A DNA stretch of 64,000 bases from Patescibacteria group bacterium (lineage in GTDB: Bacteria > Patescibacteriota > Minisyncoccia > Phycocordibacterales > CAIZLB01): NCBI GenBank assembly GCA_040384445.1, contig JAZKJG010000001.1:249483-313482 (forward strand), written 5' to 3'. A program made the position numbers and the translations under genes. Shown piece after piece: positions 5,227-42,665 of this stretch; position 1 is the first letter of the stretch; each line of letters begins with the position of its first letter. Under the pieces are notes generated by a model that worked only from the letters and a program-made list of their open reading frames with translations, did not search any database and was not told the DNA's origin.

Positions 5227-5703
5227 TTACTGTATCGTATCAGGTATAAATTTTAAGGCAAGACCATTAATACAATATCGAAGTCCTGTTGGAGTTTGAG
5301 GAGCATCATTAAATACATGTCCAAGGTGGCTTTTACATTTTGCAGAAATAATCTCTGTTCTATCCCCATCTGCCCGTTCTTCTACAGAACTTGATGCAAT
5401 CGGAGCCCAGAAACTTGGCCATCCTGTTCCTGTTTCAAACTTTTGTTCTGATCTAAACACTGGTTCGTTACAGTCAGCAGTTACATATGTTCCTTTTCGT
5501 TTTTCATATAGTAGATCACTCGTAAACGGACGCTCTGTTGCACCTTCTTTAAGAACTGCATATTGTGCTGGAGTGAGTGAAGAATCTACACTTTTAACTT
5601 CTGAAGGATTTTTGTGTATTCTTGACACAATAAAACCGAGTTGAACAATAACTATGACTATAAGTATTATTTTGATGAATTTTGATTGCATATATATGTG
5701 CAT
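5227..5703 (-). CDS. msrB: Peptide methionine-(R)-S-oxide reductase MsrB with N-terminal signal anchor
   Basis: 158 aa; GTGWPSF, CxxC...CxxC zinc motifs and RYCINGLAL catalytic region; hydrophobic N-terminus implies extracytoplasmic localisation. Confidence 0.8.
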   Translation of the reverse strand: MHIYMQSKFIKIILIVIVIVQLGFIVSRIHKNPSEVKSVDSSLTPAQYAVLKEGATERPFTSDLLYEKRKGTYVTADCNEPVFRSEQKFETGTGWPSFWAPIASSSVEERADGDRTEIISAKCKSHLGHVFNDAPQTPTGLRYCINGLALKFIPDTIQ

Positions 5704-24815: not shown

Positions 24816-25025
24816 TTATCTTCTTCTTACTAGTTTTGGTTTTCCTCCGTATGAATCTAATTCAATCTCTACTGTATCTCCAACTAAAATTCGAATTCGG
24901 TTGTATTTCATTTTACCACTTAAATACGCAAGCATAAGAGTTCCATCTTCAAGTTGCACACGAAAATGAGTGTCTGGGAGTGATTCTACCACTGTTCCGG
25001 TGAGGATGATTTTGTCTTGTGCCAT
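24816..25025 (-). CDS. infA: Translation initiation factor IF-1
   Basis: 69 aa; AKDKIILTGTVVESLPDTHFRVQLEDG...ISGKMKYNRIRILVGD aligns to IF-1 (S1/OB fold). Confidence 0.9.
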   Translation of the reverse strand: MAQDKIILTGTVVESLPDTHFRVQLEDGTLMLAYLSGKMKYNRIRILVGDTVEIELDSYGGKPKLVRRR

Positions 25026-25068
25026 ATGGGGTTATGGTACAGTAGAATGGTAATTTTGGCAATTGAGG

Positions 25069-25096
25069 TTGACAGGTAGTATATGTATGGTATTAT
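25069..25096 (+). promoter_or_regulatory. Strong sigma70-type promoter (TTGACA-N16-TGgTATTAT) at the left edge of the accessory islet
   Basis: TTGACA 25069-25074; extended -10 TGgTATTAT 25088-25096. Confidence 0.5.
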
Positions 25097-25155
25097 ATAT
25101 CCAGGCACTTTATATTTGAAGAGTGCTAATTTCAAACCATCATTTGATATTTATT

Positions 25156-25410
25156 ATGGACGATAGAGATTATTGGCTCAAAGAAGACGGAGAACTATGG
25201 AAGAATGTAACTCGGAGTGAGTTTACATATGCCGAACGTCGTGCGGGATACAAGCCTAAAGTAGGCGGTAGTCCTGTAGCAACTCCAGGCTTTTCAAAAG
25301 GCACTGTTGAGGGTCGAATTACCTACCCGGACACTAACCCTTCAGCATATGCGGACTGGGATCCAGCTTTTGCAAAAATTTTGGAAGCACACCAAGCAGT
25401 GGCTGCGTAA
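25156..25410 (+). CDS. Hypothetical small protein (84 aa from first ATG; ORF track begins at an upstream GTG 25123)
   Basis: MDDRDYWLKEDGELWKN...; bracketed by the promoter at 25069 and terminator at 25427. Confidence 0.35.
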   Translation: MDDRDYWLKEDGELWKNVTRSEFTYAERRAGYKPKVGGSPVATPGFSKGTVEGRITYPDTNPSAYADWDPAFAKILEAHQAVAA

Positions 25411-25426
25411 TTGCCACAACTATAGA

Positions 25427-25460
25427 ACACCGACCAGAAATGGTATCGGTGTTTTCTTTT
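25427..25460 (+). terminator. Intrinsic terminator
   Basis: acaccga-cagaaatggta-tcggtgt followed by tttcttttt. Confidence 0.5.
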
Positions 25461-25462
25461 TG

Positions 25463-25491
25463 TTGACACATCACTTTATTAGTGGTATTTT
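25463..25491 (+). promoter_or_regulatory. Promoter TTGACA-N17-TGgTATTTT
   Basis: TTGACA 25463-25468; extended -10 at 25483-25491. Confidence 0.5.
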
Positions 25492-25564
25492 TCACACAGT
25501 ACATTCATCAGGTAGAGGTCCCAGAAAAACCCAGGTGTCCTTATTACACCAAAGATATATACGT

Positions 25565-25774
25565 ATGCAACTTTCTTACCCTCCAGATACAGCCTTATGT
25601 GATATGTGTGGTGGACATGAAGTTGAATGTCATGTATGTGAAGGCAGACGTCATGTCTCAAAACACAGCCCACATGCAAGGCGATGCGCGGGTGATCAAT
25701 GCTTCAAAGTCGTCCCTTCAGACGCAGTCTTCACACTTTACTGCACTATACGTTGCAAATTCACAAACGAATAA
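25565..25774 (+). CDS. Cys-rich small protein (69 aa; 8 Cys, zinc-ribbon-like)
   Basis: MQLSYPPDTALCDMCGGHEVECHVCEGRRHV...CAGDQCFKV...LYCTIRCKF; first in-frame ATG after the promoter; terminator follows. Confidence 0.4.
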   Translation: MQLSYPPDTALCDMCGGHEVECHVCEGRRHVSKHSPHARRCAGDQCFKVVPSDAVFTLYCTIRCKFTNE

Positions 25775-25784
25775 TAACTCACCG

Positions 25785-25820
25785 CTCGGGAATTCCCGCT
25801 TCGGTGGGTTTTCTTTTTTG
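25785..25820 (+). terminator. Intrinsic terminator (cgggaattcccg palindrome + cccgc-ttcg-gtggg hairpin + T-run)
   Basis: Read directly from the sequence; the T-run ttttctttttt runs into repeat copy A. Confidence 0.5.
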
Positions 25821-25842
25821 ATGAAAGTACTTTGTTTGACAT
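25819..25842 (+). repeat. 24-nt repeat TTGATGAAAGTACTTTGTTTGACA, copy A (ends in a -35-like TTGACA)
   Basis: Identical 24-mer recurs at 26486-26509. Confidence 0.65.
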
Positions 25843-25929
25843 TTTACAGAGTAATGATACTGTTACTCTCGGCACTGAAGAAAGGTAGTACTCAGTCCAG
25901 CACCTCATATTTAACAAAAGGAGTCTCGT

Positions 25930-26259
25930 ATGGTAACACTCACGACTAGTCACAAAAATCCTCGCAGAAAATTTCGGAAATTTAATCGGAAGAAAGTAGT
26001 GAAGCTACTTGAACAGGCGCCGAAGTTCTTTATTTTTCACAAGTTTGTCAGGTGTCACTTTAACGACGAAATTAGGGTTTTAAATCTTGATACTCATCTC
26101 AACCTCGGAAAATACGGCAGGTTTGCACTTGTTGCCTTTGACGGATCCTCAGCAATCATCATGCACAGAGCACGACGTCAAAAAAACGATCGATTCATTT
26201 CCATTAGGAACAACAAAAATGTTAAGATCGGACACGGCATGTTCGTTGAGGAACGGTAA
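25930..26259 (+). CDS. Hypothetical basic protein (109 aa)
   Basis: ATG at 25930 preceded by AAAGAG; Lys/Arg-rich N-terminus; no motif recognised. Confidence 0.4.
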   Translation: MVTLTTSHKNPRRKFRKFNRKKVVKLLEQAPKFFIFHKFVRCHFNDEIRVLNLDTHLNLGKYGRFALVAFDGSSAIIMHRARRQKNDRFISIRNNKNVKIGHGMFVEER

Positions 26260-26281
26260 ACATCTCCCTCGCATACCTTTC

Positions 26282-26437
26282 ATGGAAAATATTATTCAAG
26301 CCCTATTTGGAATCCTTAAAATTATTGGATGCCTTCTTACTGTTGTCGTTATTGTATGCATCATTTGCTACAAGGAAATGCCACATGTCTGGACATGCAT
26401 AACAATACTCTGGGAAGAATGGAGGAAAAAGAAGTGA
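26282..26437 (+). CDS. Possible small hydrophobic protein (51 aa), low confidence
   Basis: MENIIQALFGILKIIGCLLTVVVIVCIICYKEMPHVW...; C-terminal part of ORF 26087..26437; ends 3 nt before terminator/repeat B. Confidence 0.25.
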   Translation: MENIIQALFGILKIIGCLLTVVVIVCIICYKEMPHVWTCITILWEEWRKKK

Positions 26438-26439
26438 TT

Positions 26440-26485
26440 AAAACAACCTCCCGCACTGTCATGGTGTGGGAGGGTTTTTGTTTTC
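26440..26485 (+). terminator. Terminator hairpin, copy B of a ~44-nt repeat (cctcccgcac-tgtcatg-gtgtgggagg + T-run)
   Basis: Near-identical copy at 27286-27331 (2 substitutions, 1 indel). Confidence 0.6.
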
Positions 26486-26509
26486 TTGATGAAAGTACTT
26501 TGTTTGACA
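26486..26509 (+). repeat. 24-nt repeat TTGATGAAAGTACTTTGTTTGACA, copy B
   Basis: Identical to 25819-25842; its TTGACA serves as the -35 for TGgTATTTT at 26524-26532. Confidence 0.65.
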
Positions 26510-26532
26510 CAACCATTGACATGTGGTATTTT
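26504..26532 (+). promoter_or_regulatory. Promoter TTGACA-N17-TGgTATTTT driving the MazG-like gene
   Basis: TTGACA 26504-26509, spacer 17 nt, -10 TATTTT 26527-26532 with a TG extension. Confidence 0.5.
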
Positions 26533-26567
26533 GCAAACAGAAACAAAACCTTTACTACCCTACCCTC

Positions 26568-27287
26568 ATGACCCTTGAAGAATTCCTGTCTCACTTTGGA
26601 AAAATATACGGAAAAAACAATAGGATATTTTATTCTCCTTTAGAGCACGTTGGATTTATCTCCGCTGCCATTCGGAATGTTCAAGAAACGCTGCGCAAAA
26701 AACCTGGCAACACAAGAGCTCTTGAAGAATCAATCGGCGGTCTCATTGCTCGAATTTTTGCAATCGCAACATTCTATCGGAAATTACCATTGAACAGTGG
26801 CTTTTGTACTAAATTCCCAGCCGGAGTTTGCGGAGATTGCCAGACATCAACATGTTCTTGTGATTATCAAAATCGTCCCAAGCATTCTGGAAATAAGCCT
26901 CCTGAAGAACAGTTCGCCTGGACATTGGCACAGCATCAAGAAAACATGCGAGCAGTATATGGACAAAGCAACACCGAAAAAGGAGGCACTTCTTTCTGCT
27001 TCGAAAGACTTCATTCCGAAGCTGCAGAACTTGTCTCGATTCTAATCGGTTCCGATTACACAGGTTGCACCGCTGTTGAAATTGAAAAAGGTCTCGTGGA
27101 AGAAATTTCCGATGTTTTGGCTTGGACATTGTCTTTAGCTGTTCAACTCAATGTCGATGCACAACATGTTGCTCTCCATATGTATGGCAATGGGTGTCCT
27201 ATCTGCTCCGACAATCCATGTAGGTGTCAAAAGTTCAGAATCGATCCGAGAAATCAGATTGAAACTGCCCGGACTCAACCCGCGTAA
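26568..27287 (+). CDS. MazG-like all-alpha NTP pyrophosphohydrolase domain protein with two Cys clusters
   Basis: 239 aa from ATG 26568; HSEAAELVSILIG...EISDVLAWTLSLAVQLNVD resembles the MazG EExxE/D helix pair; CGDCQTSTCSC and CPICSDNPCRC clusters. Confidence 0.5.
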   Translation: MTLEEFLSHFGKIYGKNNRIFYSPLEHVGFISAAIRNVQETLRKKPGNTRALEESIGGLIARIFAIATFYRKLPLNSGFCTKFPAGVCGDCQTSTCSCDYQNRPKHSGNKPPEEQFAWTLAQHQENMRAVYGQSNTEKGGTSFCFERLHSEAAELVSILIGSDYTGCTAVEIEKGLVEEISDVLAWTLSLAVQLNVDAQHVALHMYGNGCPICSDNPCRCQKFRIDPRNQIETARTQPA

Positions 27288-27331
27288 AACAACCTCCCAC
27301 ACTGTTATGGTGTGGGAGGGTTTTTTGTTTT
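27286..27331 (+). terminator. Terminator hairpin, copy C of the ~44-nt repeat
   Basis: cctcccacac-tgttatg-gtgtgggagg followed by gttttttgttttt. Confidence 0.6.
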
Positions 27332-27335
27332 TATA

Positions 27336-27364
27336 CTTGACCGTATACATAATAGGCGCTATTA
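27336..27364 (+). promoter_or_regulatory. Promoter TTGACC-N17-TATTAT
   Basis: TTGACC 27336-27341; TATTAT 27359-27364. Confidence 0.45.
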
Positions 27365-27370
27365 TACTTG

Positions 27371-27562
27371 AGGAAAACTGGTTGTAACAAACACTGAAGC
27401 AAAATCTAGATTGTGAGTAGTGTCAATTTTCAACCCAAGACTTAACAAACACGAACCTAAATTTATTCAGCAAGTACTGTCACTTTAAGTTATGAAAAGA
27501 ATTCCCCCGTTTGCTCGTTTTTCCGTTCAAACCCCTCCTTCGCACCGAAGGAGGGGTTTTTT
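27371..27562 (+). ncRNA. Candidate ~190-nt small RNA bounded by a promoter and an intrinsic terminator
   Basis: No credible ORF; the only long frame (27511..27726) runs through the terminator cccctccttcg-cac-cgaaggagggg + tttttt at 27532-27562. Confidence 0.3.
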
Positions 27563-27572
27563 ATATTTATAT

Positions 27573-27914
27573 TCATTTATACATCTCATCACGAATTCTT
27601 GTCAGCCCCTCAATCACTTTTTCATCGGTGATCAGAGTAAATCTTGAAACTGATTCTCCGTCGATCTCAACATTTCCCATCCACATTTCAAGTGGACGGA
27701 TATCAAAGAACTTTCCTGCTTTGTAAACTGAGGATTCGTAGATGGGTTGATAAACCACAAAGTGCACATCATCTTCTTCCGTGTGATAACCCACACCTAC
27801 CACTTGGTATACATAATTATTCATTGAACCATTGGGATTGTGCTTGTAATGGTAGTAAAAAGCACCTTTAACTGGGATGTTGGTTGGAATTTTCATGTGG
27901 GGGTAGTATAGCAT
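27573..27914 (-). CDS. DUF1653-family protein
   Basis: 113 aa; YYHYKHNPNGSMNNYVYQVVGVGYHTEEDDVHFVVYQPIY...RPLEMW matches the DUF1653 pattern (recalled from memory). Confidence 0.55.
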   Translation of the reverse strand: MLYYPHMKIPTNIPVKGAFYYHYKHNPNGSMNNYVYQVVGVGYHTEEDDVHFVVYQPIYESSVYKAGKFFDIRPLEMWMGNVEIDGESVSRFTLITDEKVIEGLTRIRDEMYK

Positions 27915-28040
27915 TTTTGGGAGAGGTGGAAATCTTTATCTTTTCTTTAACAAAACTTTTAAAAATATTTACATTGATAAAGTTATATTTATTTTGTGTT
28001 AAAATAATTAACATAAATTATTCATTATAAAAATCTATCC

Positions 28041-28778
28041 ATGCGAATATTACTTATCGAGGATGATGTCGATTTAGCAAAAAGTTTAGTAGAATGTCTT
28101 AAAACTGAACATATGATAGTAGACACTTGTGCAGAAGGTGATACTGGATCTTACGTAGCCAGAACCAATACCTATGACTTAATTCTTTTGGATCAAATTC
28201 TTCCTAAAAAATTAGGTACTGAAGTTTGTCAGGAACTCAGAAGATCTTATATTAAAACACCCATCCTAATAATGAGTGTGCGAAGTAATACAGAGGAGCG
28301 AATTTCATATCTCGAATCTGGTGCAGATGATTGTATTGCAAAACCGTTCTCAGTTGCTGAGTTAGTAATGAAGATAAAAGCATTAGTAAGAAGACCTTAC
28401 GATATCAAAGAGAGCGTAATTACAATAGATGACTTAACAATTGATGCAGGAACTCTAACAGTATCAAAAAATGGTAAAGGTTTATATTTTACCAGAAAAG
28501 AATTTTTAATTCTTGAACAAATTGCCAAAAAACCCGGACAAGTAGTAAGTCGTATGGATATTATGGACCATGTTTGGAATAAAGATTTTGATCCATTCTC
28601 AAACACGATAGAAACACATATTAGAAATATCCGTAAGAAAATTGGAGATAAAAGAAATACAAAAATAGAAACAGTTCCCGGGCGAGGATACAGGGTTTCA
28701 ACAAAAGAAACAGGTACTCTACGAGATCAAAGAATTCGAACCAATAAAAAGATTAACAAACCTACCCCCACTTCTTAA
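28041..28778 (+). CDS. OmpR/PhoB-family response regulator (orphan)
   Basis: 245 aa; receiver domain with EDD, phospho-acceptor LLDQILP, S/T and K residues; C-terminal winged helix (GRGYRV). Confidence 0.85.
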   Translation: MRILLIEDDVDLAKSLVECLKTEHMIVDTCAEGDTGSYVARTNTYDLILLDQILPKKLGTEVCQELRRSYIKTPILIMSVRSNTEERISYLESGADDCIAKPFSVAELVMKIKALVRRPYDIKESVITIDDLTIDAGTLTVSKNGKGLYFTRKEFLILEQIAKKPGQVVSRMDIMDHVWNKDFDPFSNTIETHIRNIRKKIGDKRNTKIETVPGRGYRVSTKETGTLRDQRIRTNKKINKPTPTS

Positions 28779-29472
28779 CCTGCAACCCCTTATACGCAGC
28801 CTGAGTCTCCGCTTCCTGCTTTGACTTCCCATCCCCGCTCGCGATGTGAATATCCCCCAAGAACACTCCGACTGTAAACAACTTATCATGATCTGGACCA
28901 AACTCTTTCATGAGCTCATATCGTGGAGTAACTCCAGCGTGTTCCTGTGACATTTCTTGAAACAAACTCTTTGGATCAATAAACTTCTTCTTCTCAATCA
29001 CTTCATGAATCAACGTATGCACATGCGCATCAATAAACTTTGCTGCAGCGTCATATCCAAGATCAAGATAAATAGCACCAATCAACGCTTCAATAGTGTT
29101 TGCCAAAATATATTGTCGTGCACGACCTGTATCTTTTGCTTCTCCTTTTGAAAGAAGTAGGTATGTGTTTAACCCAAGTTCTTCTGCAACAACCGCCAGT
29201 GTCTGTGCATTTACAAGTGCAGAGCGAAAGGCCGTCATTTCACCTTCAGGTTTTTTCGGATATGTTTTGTATAAAAAATTAGTTACAACCAATTCCAAAA
29301 CAGCATCTCCCAAAAACTCTAGTCGTTCGTTATGTTCTAGACCTGAATTTCTGTGTTCATTTAAATATGAACGGTGCGTAAATGCCTGAGCGAGTAAATG
29401 AATGTTTCCGAATTGTATTCCTAACTTTTTTGAGAGCTCTTCAAATTTTTCAATTTTTATCATATGTTTCAA
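28762..29472 (-). CDS. rnc: Ribonuclease III
   Basis: 236 aa; signature ERLEFLGDAVLELVV; C-terminal dsRBD. Confidence 0.9.
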   Translation of the reverse strand: MKHMIKIEKFEELSKKLGIQFGNIHLLAQAFTHRSYLNEHRNSGLEHNERLEFLGDAVLELVVTNFLYKTYPKKPEGEMTAFRSALVNAQTLAVVAEELGLNTYLLLSKGEAKDTGRARQYILANTIEALIGAIYLDLGYDAAAKFIDAHVHTLIHEVIEKKKFIDPKSLFQEMSQEHAGVTPRYELMKEFGPDHDKLFTVGVFLGDIHIASGDGKSKQEAETQAAYKGLQVKKWG

Positions 29473-29476
29473 TGTT

Positions 29477-30385
29477 TTATAGTGTTTCGATCGCAGCCAA
29501 TGCTTTCTTGATCACAGGTATCATATCTTCGTACAAATTCAGATCAAGCACTGCATCAATTTTAAACCAAGCTGCATCTTTTAATCCTCCTTCTTTTTTT
29601 GCTGTTAATGGAGTAAACTTTGCTTCGGCAATAATATACTCTACTTGCTTACGAACTTTCTTAAACTCAGGATGCGATGCAATGTATTCACTCGTATCGA
29701 TAGTTTGTTTATATTCACAAGCAATTCCCAACTCTTCCTGTACTTTTCTTTTGGCCGCATCAATAAGAGTTTCATCTTCTAGAAACTTTCCTTTTGACAA
29801 TGTCCAGAATCCAAACACATCGTGCACAAGAGCAAGATATGTATCACCCTCATGTCGGGCATATACAATACTTCCCACAAGTTTCTGGACTGGTAGTGCC
29901 GCTTTTTCTTCTTCAGTCAGTTCTTTTCGAACTTTTGGTTCTTTCTTAGTTTTTGGTTCTTCAGCACCATATAGATCTCTATACACTGCCCCAAGAACTC
30001 CGTTTACAAATTTTCCAGATGTTTCTCCTGAGAAAAACTTAGCGACTTCAATTGCTTCGTTGATTGCTACTTTTGCCGGAACTTCTTTTTTATCAGCATA
30101 AATAAGCTCATAGAGTCCGAGTCGTAGAACATTTCTATCAACTGTTCCAATCTTTTCAAGAGGCCATTCTGGTGCTGCCTTTACTATAATTGCATCAATT
30201 TCTTTTTGCTTTTTCAAAATACCATCAAGAAGCGCCTTCGCATATGTAAGATCAACATCATCTTGTGAAAACTCCTGAACATTATGTACAAGAACTTCCT
30301 CAAATAAGTTAGGGTCAATACCACGAAAATCTATCTCATACAGAGATTGTAGTGCTATTGTTCGGGATTGATGTCGACTTGCCAT
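29477..30385 (-). CDS. nusB: NusB antitermination factor fused to a C-terminal NUDIX hydrolase domain
   Basis: 302 aa; residues 1-140 are NusB (RTIALQSLYEIDF, VAINEAIEVAKFF, KFVNGVLGAV); residues ~165-302 carry a Nudix box GKFLEDETLIDAAKRKVQEELGI (Gx5Ex7R[K]VxEExGI). Confidence 0.7.
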   Translation of the reverse strand: MASRHQSRTIALQSLYEIDFRGIDPNLFEEVLVHNVQEFSQDDVDLTYAKALLDGILKKQKEIDAIIVKAAPEWPLEKIGTVDRNVLRLGLYELIYADKKEVPAKVAINEAIEVAKFFSGETSGKFVNGVLGAVYRDLYGAEEPKTKKEPKVRKELTEEEKAALPVQKLVGSIVYARHEGDTYLALVHDVFGFWTLSKGKFLEDETLIDAAKRKVQEELGIACEYKQTIDTSEYIASHPEFKKVRKQVEYIIAEAKFTPLTAKKEGGLKDAAWFKIDAVLDLNLYEDMIPVIKKALAAIETL

Positions 30386-30432
30386 GGTTTTTTGTTTGTT
30401 TAAATGAACTTTGACCGATGCTGCGTATAATA

Positions 30433-30651
30433 TTACGCTTTAACTGCTTGAGATTTTGCAGCTTTTTTATCGATTTTAGCAGCCATATCAATAACCATAC
30501 GTCCTTTAAAGTGACCGCAATTCTTGCATACTGTATGTTTTAGACCTGGTTGACCACAGTTTGTACAAAGTGTTAAATCTACCGCCTTAAGAGCATGGTG
30601 ACTTCTTCGGTTACCAGTATGCCCTCGCGTGTGTCGCATGTTATTTACCAT
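30433..30651 (-). CDS. rpmF: 50S ribosomal protein L32
   Basis: 72 aa; N-terminal basic RHTRGHTGNRRSHHALK and CxxC...CxxC zinc ribbon typical of L32. Confidence 0.75.
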   Translation of the reverse strand: MVNNMRHTRGHTGNRRSHHALKAVDLTLCTNCGQPGLKHTVCKNCGHFKGRMVIDMAAKIDKKAAKSQAVKA

Positions 30652-30807
30652 AATACTATGAGTATACGTATTTTCAGGCGGATTGCAAGGGATTATAGTG
30701 TGATTATTGGGGATTTTGTGGATTATTGTGTTTTAAGGGTATTTATGGTATAATAATGGCTATGGTCTTACGTTAGACTAAACCCTCTACCCCATCCTGA
30801 CCTTTAT

Positions 30808-31185
30808 ATGCAACTAGCACCCTGGATCAAATTCGTCATTCTCTTACTGTTTGTCGGAGTACTTGGTTACAACCGAATCGTTTACCGACAACTTGCAGAA
30901 AACGAGAAACCTCATCCTACCCCAACAATCAAGCTCGATATTATTCCACTCAGTAAACTCCCTCCGGGACAATACAGAGTACTCGAGAAAATTTCGAGAG
31001 TGCCAACCAAGAAATACTCCAAGATGGACTGGCTGACCATCAAAGTACAGGACATCACTGAATCTTTTCCACACACTACACACGTGGTGCAAATGATGCA
31101 GCTCGGCAATGAAGATGATGCACACCTCGTAAACTCAACGTTCATCAAAAACGTCGATGGATCAACATTCCAAGCAATGAAGTAA
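30808..31185 (+). CDS. Membrane-anchored hypothetical protein (125 aa)
   Basis: N-terminal TM; TGgTATAAT extended -10 about 65 nt upstream; terminator follows at 31198-31240. Confidence 0.4.
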   Translation: MQLAPWIKFVILLLFVGVLGYNRIVYRQLAENEKPHPTPTIKLDIIPLSKLPPGQYRVLEKISRVPTKKYSKMDWLTIKVQDITESFPHTTHVVQMMQLGNEDDAHLVNSTFIKNVDGSTFQAMK

Positions 31186-31281
31186 GCCACTCAAACCTCC
31201 CCTCGGACCCACAAAGTCTGAGGGGATTTTTTAATATAAAAACACTCGAGGTAACCGAAGTTACCTCGAGTGGTGTGGGTG

Positions 31282-35628: not shown

Positions 35629-35743
35629 AGTTTTCATGATAGAGTATCAAAGCCTCCCCACCTTTTAAATCGAGAGATCACCTTGAACGAGTTCCCTAAC
35701 TATAAGGGTAAGTGTTCCAGGAAGTGTGTGGAGGTTTATTATT

Positions 35744-35830
35744 TGCTATAATACTGTACGTACGAGGGTAGCTTTGGTAGGCTGCTACTCTACAGGTGGT
35801 CCTGCACGCGTATGCGTGGGGACCACTTTT

Positions 35831-35832
<2 letters not shown>
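35744..35832 (+). ncRNA. Candidate ~75-nt small RNA: extended -10 promoter (TGcTATAAT) then two hairpins and a T-run
   Basis: TGcTATAAT at 35744-35752; hairpin guagc...gcuac; terminal nested hairpin gtggtcc-[cacgcgtatgcgtg]-ggaccac followed by tttttt at 35827-35832; no downstream plus-strand gene; lacks a tRNA T-loop. Confidence 0.3.
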
Positions 35833-37400
<1,568 letters not shown>

Positions 37401-42262: not shown

Positions 42263-42622
42263 TTATCTCACGTAGAATCTCACAAGTAGTCCAAACAACA
42301 GCAAAGTCATTGCAAGTAACATGATCGTAGATATATATCGCTCTTTTACAATTGCAAATATTGAACCAAACAAAAACACAGTAGGAATAATAAAATGATG
42401 TACACCGGCCACACACGCATCTGTACACAGCAGTAATATTATAAACGGATATATACTTCCAACACACACAACAACTATTCCAACCCAACTCAGCACAGTA
42501 GTGAGTGTTTCAAATCTCTCATTTGCTGGTGTAAAATTTACCATGCGGAGGATGTGAGATTCGAACTCACGGAACCATTTCTGGCTCGACAGTTTAGTAA
42601 ACTGTTGATTTAAACCACTCAT
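42263..42622 (-). CDS. Membrane protein (119 aa), hypothetical
   Basis: 2-3 TM helices. Confidence 0.35.
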   Translation of the reverse strand: MSGLNQQFTKLSSQKWFREFESHILRMVNFTPANERFETLTTVLSWVGIVVVCVGSIYPFIILLLCTDACVAGVHHFIIPTVFLFGSIFAIVKERYISTIMLLAMTLLLFGLLVRFYVR

Positions 42623-42665
42623 CCAATCCTCCTTTCTTATAGGGATAATACCCTACAAGTTTATG

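Follow-up and report, generated by a model that had tools for sequence, protein, structure and literature searches.

A candidate small non-coding RNA gene convergent with a DUF1653 gene in a Patescibacteria genome

Between a gene for a 239-aa protein and a convergent gene of the DUF1653 family, the genome of a Patescibacteria group bacterium (NCBI GenBank assembly GCA_040384445.1) harbors a short unit in which a σ70-type promoter-like site is followed by a strong intrinsic terminator. All coordinates given here are those of the 64,000-nucleotide (nt) stretch that we analyzed (contig JAZKJG010000001.1, positions 249,483 to 313,482 of the forward strand), which we call the window; the unit occupies 27337–27572. 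We put forward the tentative reading that the unit may be a lineage-specific, independently transcribed small non-coding RNA (sRNA) gene that is co-inherited with the DUF1653 gene. Its predicted transcript (~27372..~27565, plus strand) would be ~190–194 nt long, with a 5′ end placed ~7 nt after the −10 element and a 3′ end in a run of U residues. Below we set out the anatomy of the unit, its lack of coding capacity, its divergence between two strains and its linkage to DUF1653, and we weigh this reading against five alternatives.

An orphan promoter and a strand-specific terminator

The promoter-like site, P5 (27337..27365, plus strand), consists of a −35 hexamer TTGACC at 27337–27342 and a −10 hexamer TATTAT at 27360–27365 separated by a 17-nt spacer (TTGACC-N17-TATTAT), and matches the σ70-type consensus at 10 of 12 positions, in agreement with an earlier reading of the same DNA made from the letters alone (the sequence-only reading). 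When the 209-nt gap was shuffled 5000 times with its dinucleotide composition preserved, 3.7% of the shuffles had a plus-strand match of at least 10/12; taken alone, the match is modestly significant. Promoter-like matches at this level number 35 in the window, 11 of them in intergenic sequence (which makes up 11% of the total), and most of these 11 stand just 5′ of gene starts (7–34 nt away, plus P1 at 25069). The match at 27337 is the sole plus-strand intergenic one without a gene to serve, the nearest plus-strand gene start being 676 nt off, past a terminator and an opposing gene. A 17-bp palindrome, ATAATAG-GCG-CTATTAT (27349–27365), spans the −10 hexamer and also gives minus-strand TATAAT matches; it is possibly an operator or may have arisen by chance.

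On its left the unit is bounded by T4 (27293..27331, plus strand), the terminator of the upstream 239-aa gene (c4), whose hairpin at 27293–27319 is called on both strands and whose sequence is 91% identical to the terminator at 26439–26484. The −35 hexamer of P5 starts 18 nt after this hairpin, and the order of terminator and then promoter is the same as at the other junctions of the gene islet in which c4 lies.

The unit closes with the intrinsic terminator T5 (27529..27565, plus strand), a hairpin AAACCCCTCCTTCG-CAC-CGAAGGAGGGGTTT at 27529–27559 with a perfect 14-bp stem, a 3-nt loop and a T run (U6 in the RNA) that continues to 27565. The hairpin begins about 165 nt beyond the TATTAT element. 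Folded alone it reaches −24.2 kcal/mol (z −7.25), a value equaled by 0 of 200 shuffles; it clearly exceeds chance and is the top terminator-like site of the window, so that the strong terminator proposed ~190 nt beyond the promoter is borne out. On the minus-strand side the hairpin is followed only by UUUGAACGG, without a proper U tract. Because the U tract is confined to the plus strand, a plus-strand transcript would end at T5, and the simplest explanation for a plus-strand-specific terminator 200 nt past T4 would be a plus-strand transcription unit between the two. Convergent genes at another place in the window each carry a terminator of their own, at 31198 (plus strand) and 31272 (minus strand).

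Early screens for sRNAs in E. coli looked for an orphan σ70 promoter and a Rho-independent terminator 50–400 nt apart. Like classical intergenic sRNA genes, the unit combines an orphan promoter, a strong terminator with a U tract, a length of ~190 nt and the absence of an open reading frame (ORF), and it lies in an unusually long intergenic gap and is conserved between strains. Unlike them, it is conserved in one other strain only, its stable structure is that of the terminator alone, its host belongs to the Candidate Phyla Radiation (CPR), and it is known here from sequence.

A body without credible coding capacity

The sequence-only reading had found nothing credibly coding between promoter and terminator and a single long frame that crosses the terminator, and our analysis agrees. 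Just one plus-strand ORF that begins in the unit reaches 30 aa (27492–27647, 51 aa), and it runs through the T5 hairpin. All six translated frames are interrupted by several stops, which speaks against a pseudogene, and tblastx of the unit finds no protein-like similarity in the 7, and then 62, loci that were fetched. Under an alternative code, with the two TGA codons of the longest plus-strand frame recoded, that frame still has no start and crosses the T4 hairpin.

We consider it very improbable that the unit instead encodes a very small protein. Plus-strand ORFs of 9–22 aa are present, the longest internal one being a 22-aa frame with a GTG start (27420–27488), and their want of a Shine-Dalgarno sequence is not decisive, since several genes of the islet also have no obvious one. 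However, the lengths of these ORFs are within chance expectation, there is no ATG on the plus strand of the unit before 27492, whose ORF crosses the terminator, and one of the strain differences described below (27459 A>G) turns Lys into Glu in the 22-aa frame. A 28-aa ORF on the minus strand (27490–27576), whose ATG overlaps the DUF1653 TGA (ATGA), would be translated through T5 and probably reflects chance.

Low divergence between two strains

A second strain (strain B, assembly GCA_040384025.1) was found via the 90% clusters of c4 and DUF1653 and contributes two contigs. L063 matches 27286–31270 of the window at 97.7% and holds the whole unit together with DUF1653, while L064 matches 26468–27330 (the c4 cassette) at 97.6% and diverges beyond T4, where it has a new gene and a P4-like promoter. 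The 8 nt with which L064 ends (AGGAGGAA) are the reverse complement of those with which L063 begins, and an exact-protein look-up of rpmF returned only L063. Most simply, the order in strain B would thus be c4, T4, an extra ~134-aa cassette closed by the shared terminator (its third copy), followed by P5, the RNA, T5 and DUF1653, and finally the response regulator gene.

P5 is unchanged and T5 identical in strain B, and the unit as a whole (27337–27572) differs at 2 of 236 positions (0.85%). Third codon positions differ at 52 of 1093 sites (4.8%) in the six genes of L063 and at 13 of 240 (5.4%) in c4, and first and second positions of the six L063 genes at 18 of 2186 (0.8%). Among non-coding segments, the T4 region differs at 4/51 positions (7.8%), the P4 region at 4/100 (4%), the spacer 30652–30807 at 7/156 (4.5%) and the spacer 31186–31270 at 7/85 (8%). 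The 0.85% of the unit thus stands against 3.9–4.9% at third positions and 4–8% in other spacers, with one-sided Fisher P values of 0.013 against local third positions (c4, DUF1653 and the response regulator together, 23/594) and 0.0013 against all third positions (65/1333). The DUF1653 gene itself differs at 8 of 324 positions (2.5%), and a recent transfer of the whole block therefore does not account for the low divergence of the unit. Both substitutions, 27459 A>G and 27523 C>T, would fit the fold predicted for the unit: one lies in a predicted loop and the other changes the pair G27373–C27523 of the closing stem to G-U. To judge from these alignments, the low strain divergence is the only positive sign of function beyond the anatomy of the unit.

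Of the eight differences that separate the strains in DUF1653, five fall within 15 nt (27651–27665), three of these at first codon positions; the cluster points to a multi-nucleotide event or a short recombination tract.

These figures bear on the possibility that the region is non-functional spacer, in which the hairpin would be the DUF1653 terminator or a backstop of the upstream cassette, the promoter an accidental match in AT-rich sequence, and no discrete RNA of consequence would be made. We regard this as unlikely, if deserving of serious attention. An equal promoter match appears in about 1 in 27 gap shuffles; promoter-like matches in the window are, outside 25–30 kb, no commoner than in shuffles; the T5 hairpin begins 14 nt after the DUF1653 stop; and the body has neither a structure signal nor homologues. 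Yet the U tract of T5 is on the wrong strand for DUF1653, neutral expectation would be 3.9–8% divergence against the 0.85% seen, and a 285-bp convergent gap is unusual in a compact genome (on a rough gene map it is the largest in the window, where the median is 52 bp).

A block shared with DUF1653

The gene convergent with the unit (27573..27896, minus strand) encodes 107 aa from the NCBI start, or 113 aa in the longer window ORF, which extends up to 27914. Its family assignment (Pfam PF07866, E 7e-12) and its convergence with the unit are as the sequence-only reading had described them. Its structure model (mean pLDDT, a confidence score, of 91) matches only PDB 3be3, a structural-genomics DUF1653 entry, and the match offers, as far as models go, no functional clue. 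Exact-protein look-ups of the 113-aa ORF and of a protein designated P0001 found neither on record. A promoter-like site for the gene, TTTCCA-N16-TGcTATACT (27905..27932, minus strand), ends 8 nt before the annotated ATG, which suggests that the mRNA is leaderless or nearly so; several further intergenic promoter matches in the window are likewise 7–10 nt from ORF starts.

Scanning a genome collection for GltX yielded 55 loci, among which L008 is the nearest syntenic species-level relative (GltX 77%, RNase III and NusB 91%, response regulator 83% identical). There, infA is followed by a 246-aa gene, and a c4 homologue (37%) with a promoter before it and a terminator after it leads directly to the upstream region of the response regulator; homology with the window restarts at ~27931, at AAATCTTTATCTTTT. 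Relative to L008, the ~600 bp from 27331 to 27930 therefore behave as an indel whose contents are the RNA unit, DUF1653 and the DUF1653 promoter, which forms the right end of the block. The unit and DUF1653 are linked in both comparisons: both are missing in L008 and both are present in L063. Three further loci (L009, L010 and L045) are not syntenic at the indel, so that there is no outgroup to polarize it, and inspection of the block ends by eye found no target-site duplication and no terminal inverted repeats.

A protein search with DUF1653 gave 173 relatives; apart from the protein itself, none exceeds 68% identity, and their contexts vary. Downstream of the homologue in L002, another Patescibacteria contig, a 527-bp gap (5350–5700, plus strand) also holds promoter-like sites and terminator-like ones, among them two same-strand hairpins, at 5573 and 5668, that have T runs; in sequence these elements are unrelated to the unit.

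The fixed edge of a cassette islet

To the left of this block, between infA (24816–25025, minus strand) and the gene of an OmpR-type response regulator (28041–28778, plus strand), the islet is a row of self-contained cassettes. The first has a promoter at 25069 and an 84-aa gene with no terminator called; the second a promoter at 25463, a Cys-rich 69-aa gene and a terminator at 25795; the third a promoter at 25836, genes for a 109-aa protein and a 51-aa membrane peptide, and a terminator at 26447; and the fourth a promoter at 26504, the 239-aa gene c4 and T4 at 27293. Parts of these cassettes are shared: the terminators at 26439–26484 and 27285–27330 are 91% identical, as are the junctions at 25809–25841 and 26477–26509. 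The sequences of P5 and T5 are unrelated to these shared promoter and terminator modules. The islet proteins have no match in Pfam, PHROGs, PADLOC or NCBIfam, except for DUF1653 in Pfam.

The c4 gene (26568–27287, plus strand) is a near-orphan, with searches returning itself, the 37% homologue in L008 and one match to a MazG domain at E 3e-4; its product weakly matches the MazG-like PDB entry 1vmg and has Cys-rich insertions. The strain differences in c4 number 13 at third positions against 4 at first and second positions, and c4 is therefore a real gene under purifying selection. Viral scans with the 239-aa protein and with the DUF1653 protein were empty, and distant blastn of the whole islet against phage records was empty or at chance level.

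The region 5′ of infA, towards the response regulator, is a hotspot of interchangeable promoter-gene-terminator cassettes (25060–27330), as seen when it is compared with L064 (1–1723), L063 (3938–4241), L008 (7950–9700) and L009 (7815–9665). At this hotspot L008 has only the c4 homologue and the 246-aa gene, while L009 has an AAA-ATPase and a RloB-like pair. In strain B the gene 5′ of the c4 cassette is different too, and the breakpoints coincide exactly with the shared terminator. The hotspot showed neither an integrase nor a recombinase.

With the strain B breakpoints at the shared terminator, the unit keeps its place beside DUF1653 and has a different cassette on its left. The placement of the transcript "inside the islet" by the sequence-only reading thus needs qualification: the unit does stand at the fixed edge of the islet, but it is rather part of the ~600-bp DUF1653 block, with a promoter and a terminator foreign to the cassette modules.

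The same comparisons speak to the idea that the unit is the relic of a lost cassette gene, whose ORF is gone and whose promoter and terminator may still fire and do nothing. Four promoter-gene(-terminator) cassettes lie directly 5′ and cassette content varies among strains and relatives, as this idea would have it. We nevertheless think it improbable: P5 and T5 are not of the shared modules, several stops interrupt each of the six frames and tblastx detects nothing protein-like, the unit is conserved when neutral evolution would be expected, and it moves with DUF1653 and not with the cassettes.

Weighing the reading

Our reading of the unit as an sRNA gene thus draws on its non-coding character by every test applied, its classical sRNA-gene anatomy and its tight conservation between strains; the suggestion that it is a candidate sRNA is upheld to this extent, and is weakened by a body that shows no structure signal and by the lack of an Rfam family. 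Several observations weigh against it. P5 is without a TG extension, whereas the four other promoters of the islet and the DUF1653 promoter have one. The 155-nt body (27372–27526), which is A-rich (34% A), folds no better than its shuffles (z +0.89, plus strand); the z score of −3.0 for the whole unit comes wholly from the terminator, so that the fold check lends no support. Scanned at gathering threshold against Rfam 15, the window yields a single pass, a tRNA, and no family in the unit; the best sub-threshold matches of a permissive scan (E ≤ 10) of 27200–27700, RefA9 (29 bits against a threshold of 49) and RsaJ (26 against 100), fall on terminator hairpins only, and in eight related loci Rfam scans find only tRNAs and one rRNA end. 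No homologue of the unit appears in two metagenome-contig exact-pattern scans (with a 26-mer of the body and with the hairpin with a free loop), in two viral-contig DNA-pattern scans, or in blastn, nhmmer or tblastx comparisons with 7, and then 62, related loci and the window itself. The DUF1653 homologues in seven other loci (L001–L007) are not accompanied by a comparable convergent unit or by RNA similarity. Divergence along the locus is uneven, from 0/144 in the spacer between DUF1653 and the response regulator to 9.9% at third positions of nusB, and the conservation argument stands on one strain pair and two substitutions; the alignments are silent, moreover, on which strand is constrained and on whether the constraint is on RNA or on DNA. 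Finally, read-through of T5 by DUF1653 transcripts, on which part of the mechanism below depends, is inferred only from the missing minus-strand U tract.

If the constraint were on DNA, the unit could be a regulatory region in which the palindrome at 27349–27365 and two pairs of 10-nt repeats bind a protein, for example the adjacent OmpR-family response regulator. One pair, TAACAAACAC, occurs at 27385..27394 and 27443..27452 (plus strand), 58 nt apart, and these are its sole copies in the window (0.25 expected); the other, TTATACTTGA, likewise occurs twice in the unit. The response regulator gene is 480 nt off, and the neighboring spacer between it and DUF1653 is also invariant between the strains. 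This explanation seems to us rather far-fetched, however: the repeat spacings of 31 and 58 nt are unlike the usual 10–11-nt phasing of OmpR-type sites, L008 has the response regulator and its upstream region without the ~600-bp block, and no plus-strand target is left downstream to regulate. No tandem repeats or periodic array were found in the unit.

Proposed mode of action

Returning to the sRNA reading, we envisage that RNA polymerase with the housekeeping sigma factor initiates at about G27372, after TTGACC-N17-TATTAT, transcribes the weakly structured A-rich body of ~155 nt and stops at the T5 hairpin and U6, giving a product of ~190 nt. Because a proper U tract exists only on the plus strand, transcripts of DUF1653 would often pass T5 and end at the bidirectional T4. 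Their 3′ extension would be fully complementary to the sRNA, and the two could form a long perfect duplex, a substrate for RNase III. The sRNA may in this way tune the stability of the DUF1653 mRNA, while T5 would keep antisense transcription out of the DUF1653 coding sequence. If made, the predicted RNA would certainly overlap the DUF1653 transcript at its 3′ end over the hairpin, and would do so over the whole unit on condition that T5 is read through. The predicted RNA ends 8 nt short of the DUF1653 stop codon and does not overlap the coding region; antisense overlap is therefore limited to the 3′ untranslated end, and the earlier suggestion of a cis-antisense regulator of the islet is not supported. 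As far as the sequence allows, antisense interplay with DUF1653 is the most likely mode of action, with a trans-acting role elsewhere in the genome about equally possible.

The minus strand offers an explanation of its own, in which the functional transcript is a long 3′ untranslated extension of DUF1653 that ends at the bidirectional T4 and is conserved as such. Conservation is blind to strand, the region is co-inherited with DUF1653, T5 has no minus-strand U tract and T4 is called on both strands, all of which would suit such an extension. It leaves unexplained, on the other hand, both the plus-strand U6 and a plus-strand promoter right after T4; the downstream regions of DUF1653 homologues elsewhere are varied and unrelated; and the minus-strand fold of the body is nothing special (z −0.15). 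We judge it doubtful.

We also entertain, as a long shot, a more specific proposal of a functional module with two parts, the DUF1653 protein and the ~190-nt RNA, that would be gained and lost as one ~600-bp block and would anchor the fixed end of the strain-variable cassette array. Such a module could act as a new kind of RNA-controlled toxin or as an element of defence or addiction, or could pair an RNA with a dedicated RNA-binding partner.

Comparison with known systems

The unit resembles RNase III-processed convergent antisense pairs in that it is convergent with DUF1653, the two transcripts would have the 31-nt hairpin, at the least, in common, the genome has an rnc gene (28762–29472), and the asymmetric U tract of T5 suggests DUF1653 read-through over the whole unit. 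It differs from them in that 8 nt separate the end of the small RNA from the DUF1653 coding region, with wider overlap hinging on the predicted read-through, and in that no DUF1653-unit association is conserved elsewhere.

With the RNAs of type I and type III toxin-antitoxin (TA) systems (Sib/OhsC-like and ToxI-like, respectively) it shares its own promoter and terminator and a variable, islet-like setting, with a gene for a 51-aa membrane peptide 1 kb away; weak, terminator-driven Rfam matches to OrzO-P and ohsC at T4 (27286–27371, minus strand) are far below threshold. A type I antisense RNA was rejected, there being no overlapping hydrophobic toxin ORF: opposite-strand ORFs are at most 28 aa, mostly start with TTG or GTG, and none is membrane-like. 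Complementarity of the unit to the membrane peptide gene or to neighboring mRNAs is no better than in shuffled controls. A type III RNA was rejected on the lack of tandem repeats and on the orientation of the next gene, which is on the opposite strand. The proposal of an antitoxin RNA, then, finds no support.

TIGR arrays, which occur with Tas proteins in phages and parasitic bacteria, consist of two alternating repeats of 8–12 nt and 9-nt spacers in 36-nt units, repeated ~5–15 times, beside a Nop-domain (Tas) gene (PMC12045711). Like them, the unit is non-coding, ends in a Rho-independent terminator, sits in a CPR-type genome and has a short repeated motif; a TIGR array was nevertheless rejected, since the motif is a 10-mer that occurs just twice, at a distance of 58 nt, and there is neither a periodic array nor a Nop domain nearby.

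A 5′ leader, attenuator or riboswitch was likewise rejected: after T5 there is only DUF1653 in antisense, and the response regulator has an upstream region of its own, kept in L008. The same applies to a trans-acting regulator of neighboring genes, as duplex energies against all translation-initiation regions of the window and against neighboring mRNAs are no better than those of shuffled RNAs; this target prediction covered the 64-kb window, a part of the genome.

Other features of the window

A second orphan unit (35735–35835, plus strand), again in a long convergent gap, combines an extended −10 element, TGCTATAAT, with a hairpin GTGGTCC...GGGACCAC plus TTTTTTATTT ~45 nt further on; an RNA of ~75–85 nt is possible, and no Rfam family matches at gathering threshold. 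A 302-aa gene at 29477–30385 (minus strand; 886–1794 in L063) encodes NusB fused to a NUDIX hydrolase domain, as seen from the Pfam matches PF01029 and PF00293 on the L063 orthologue. A tRNA-Ser at 42545–42632 (minus strand) has the anticodon ACU according to ARAGORN and an Infernal alignment, and an A at anticodon position 34 is unusual for a bacterial serine tRNA.

Implications

The unit is an ordinary-looking sRNA prediction, and its value is that of a candidate for metatranscriptome mapping and not of a discovery. The literature that we searched holds essentially no sRNA work on Patescibacteria, and the unit, if transcribed, would be among very few concrete small-RNA candidates in a group whose riboregulation is essentially unexplored. 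The islet beside it indicates that family-less genes in reduced genomes can form interchangeable promoter-gene-terminator cassettes that differ between near-identical strains. For the DUF1653 family, the linkage with the unit is a testable lead, and the RNA-DUF1653 module, if true, would give the first functional handle on a widespread family whose structure is solved and whose function is not.

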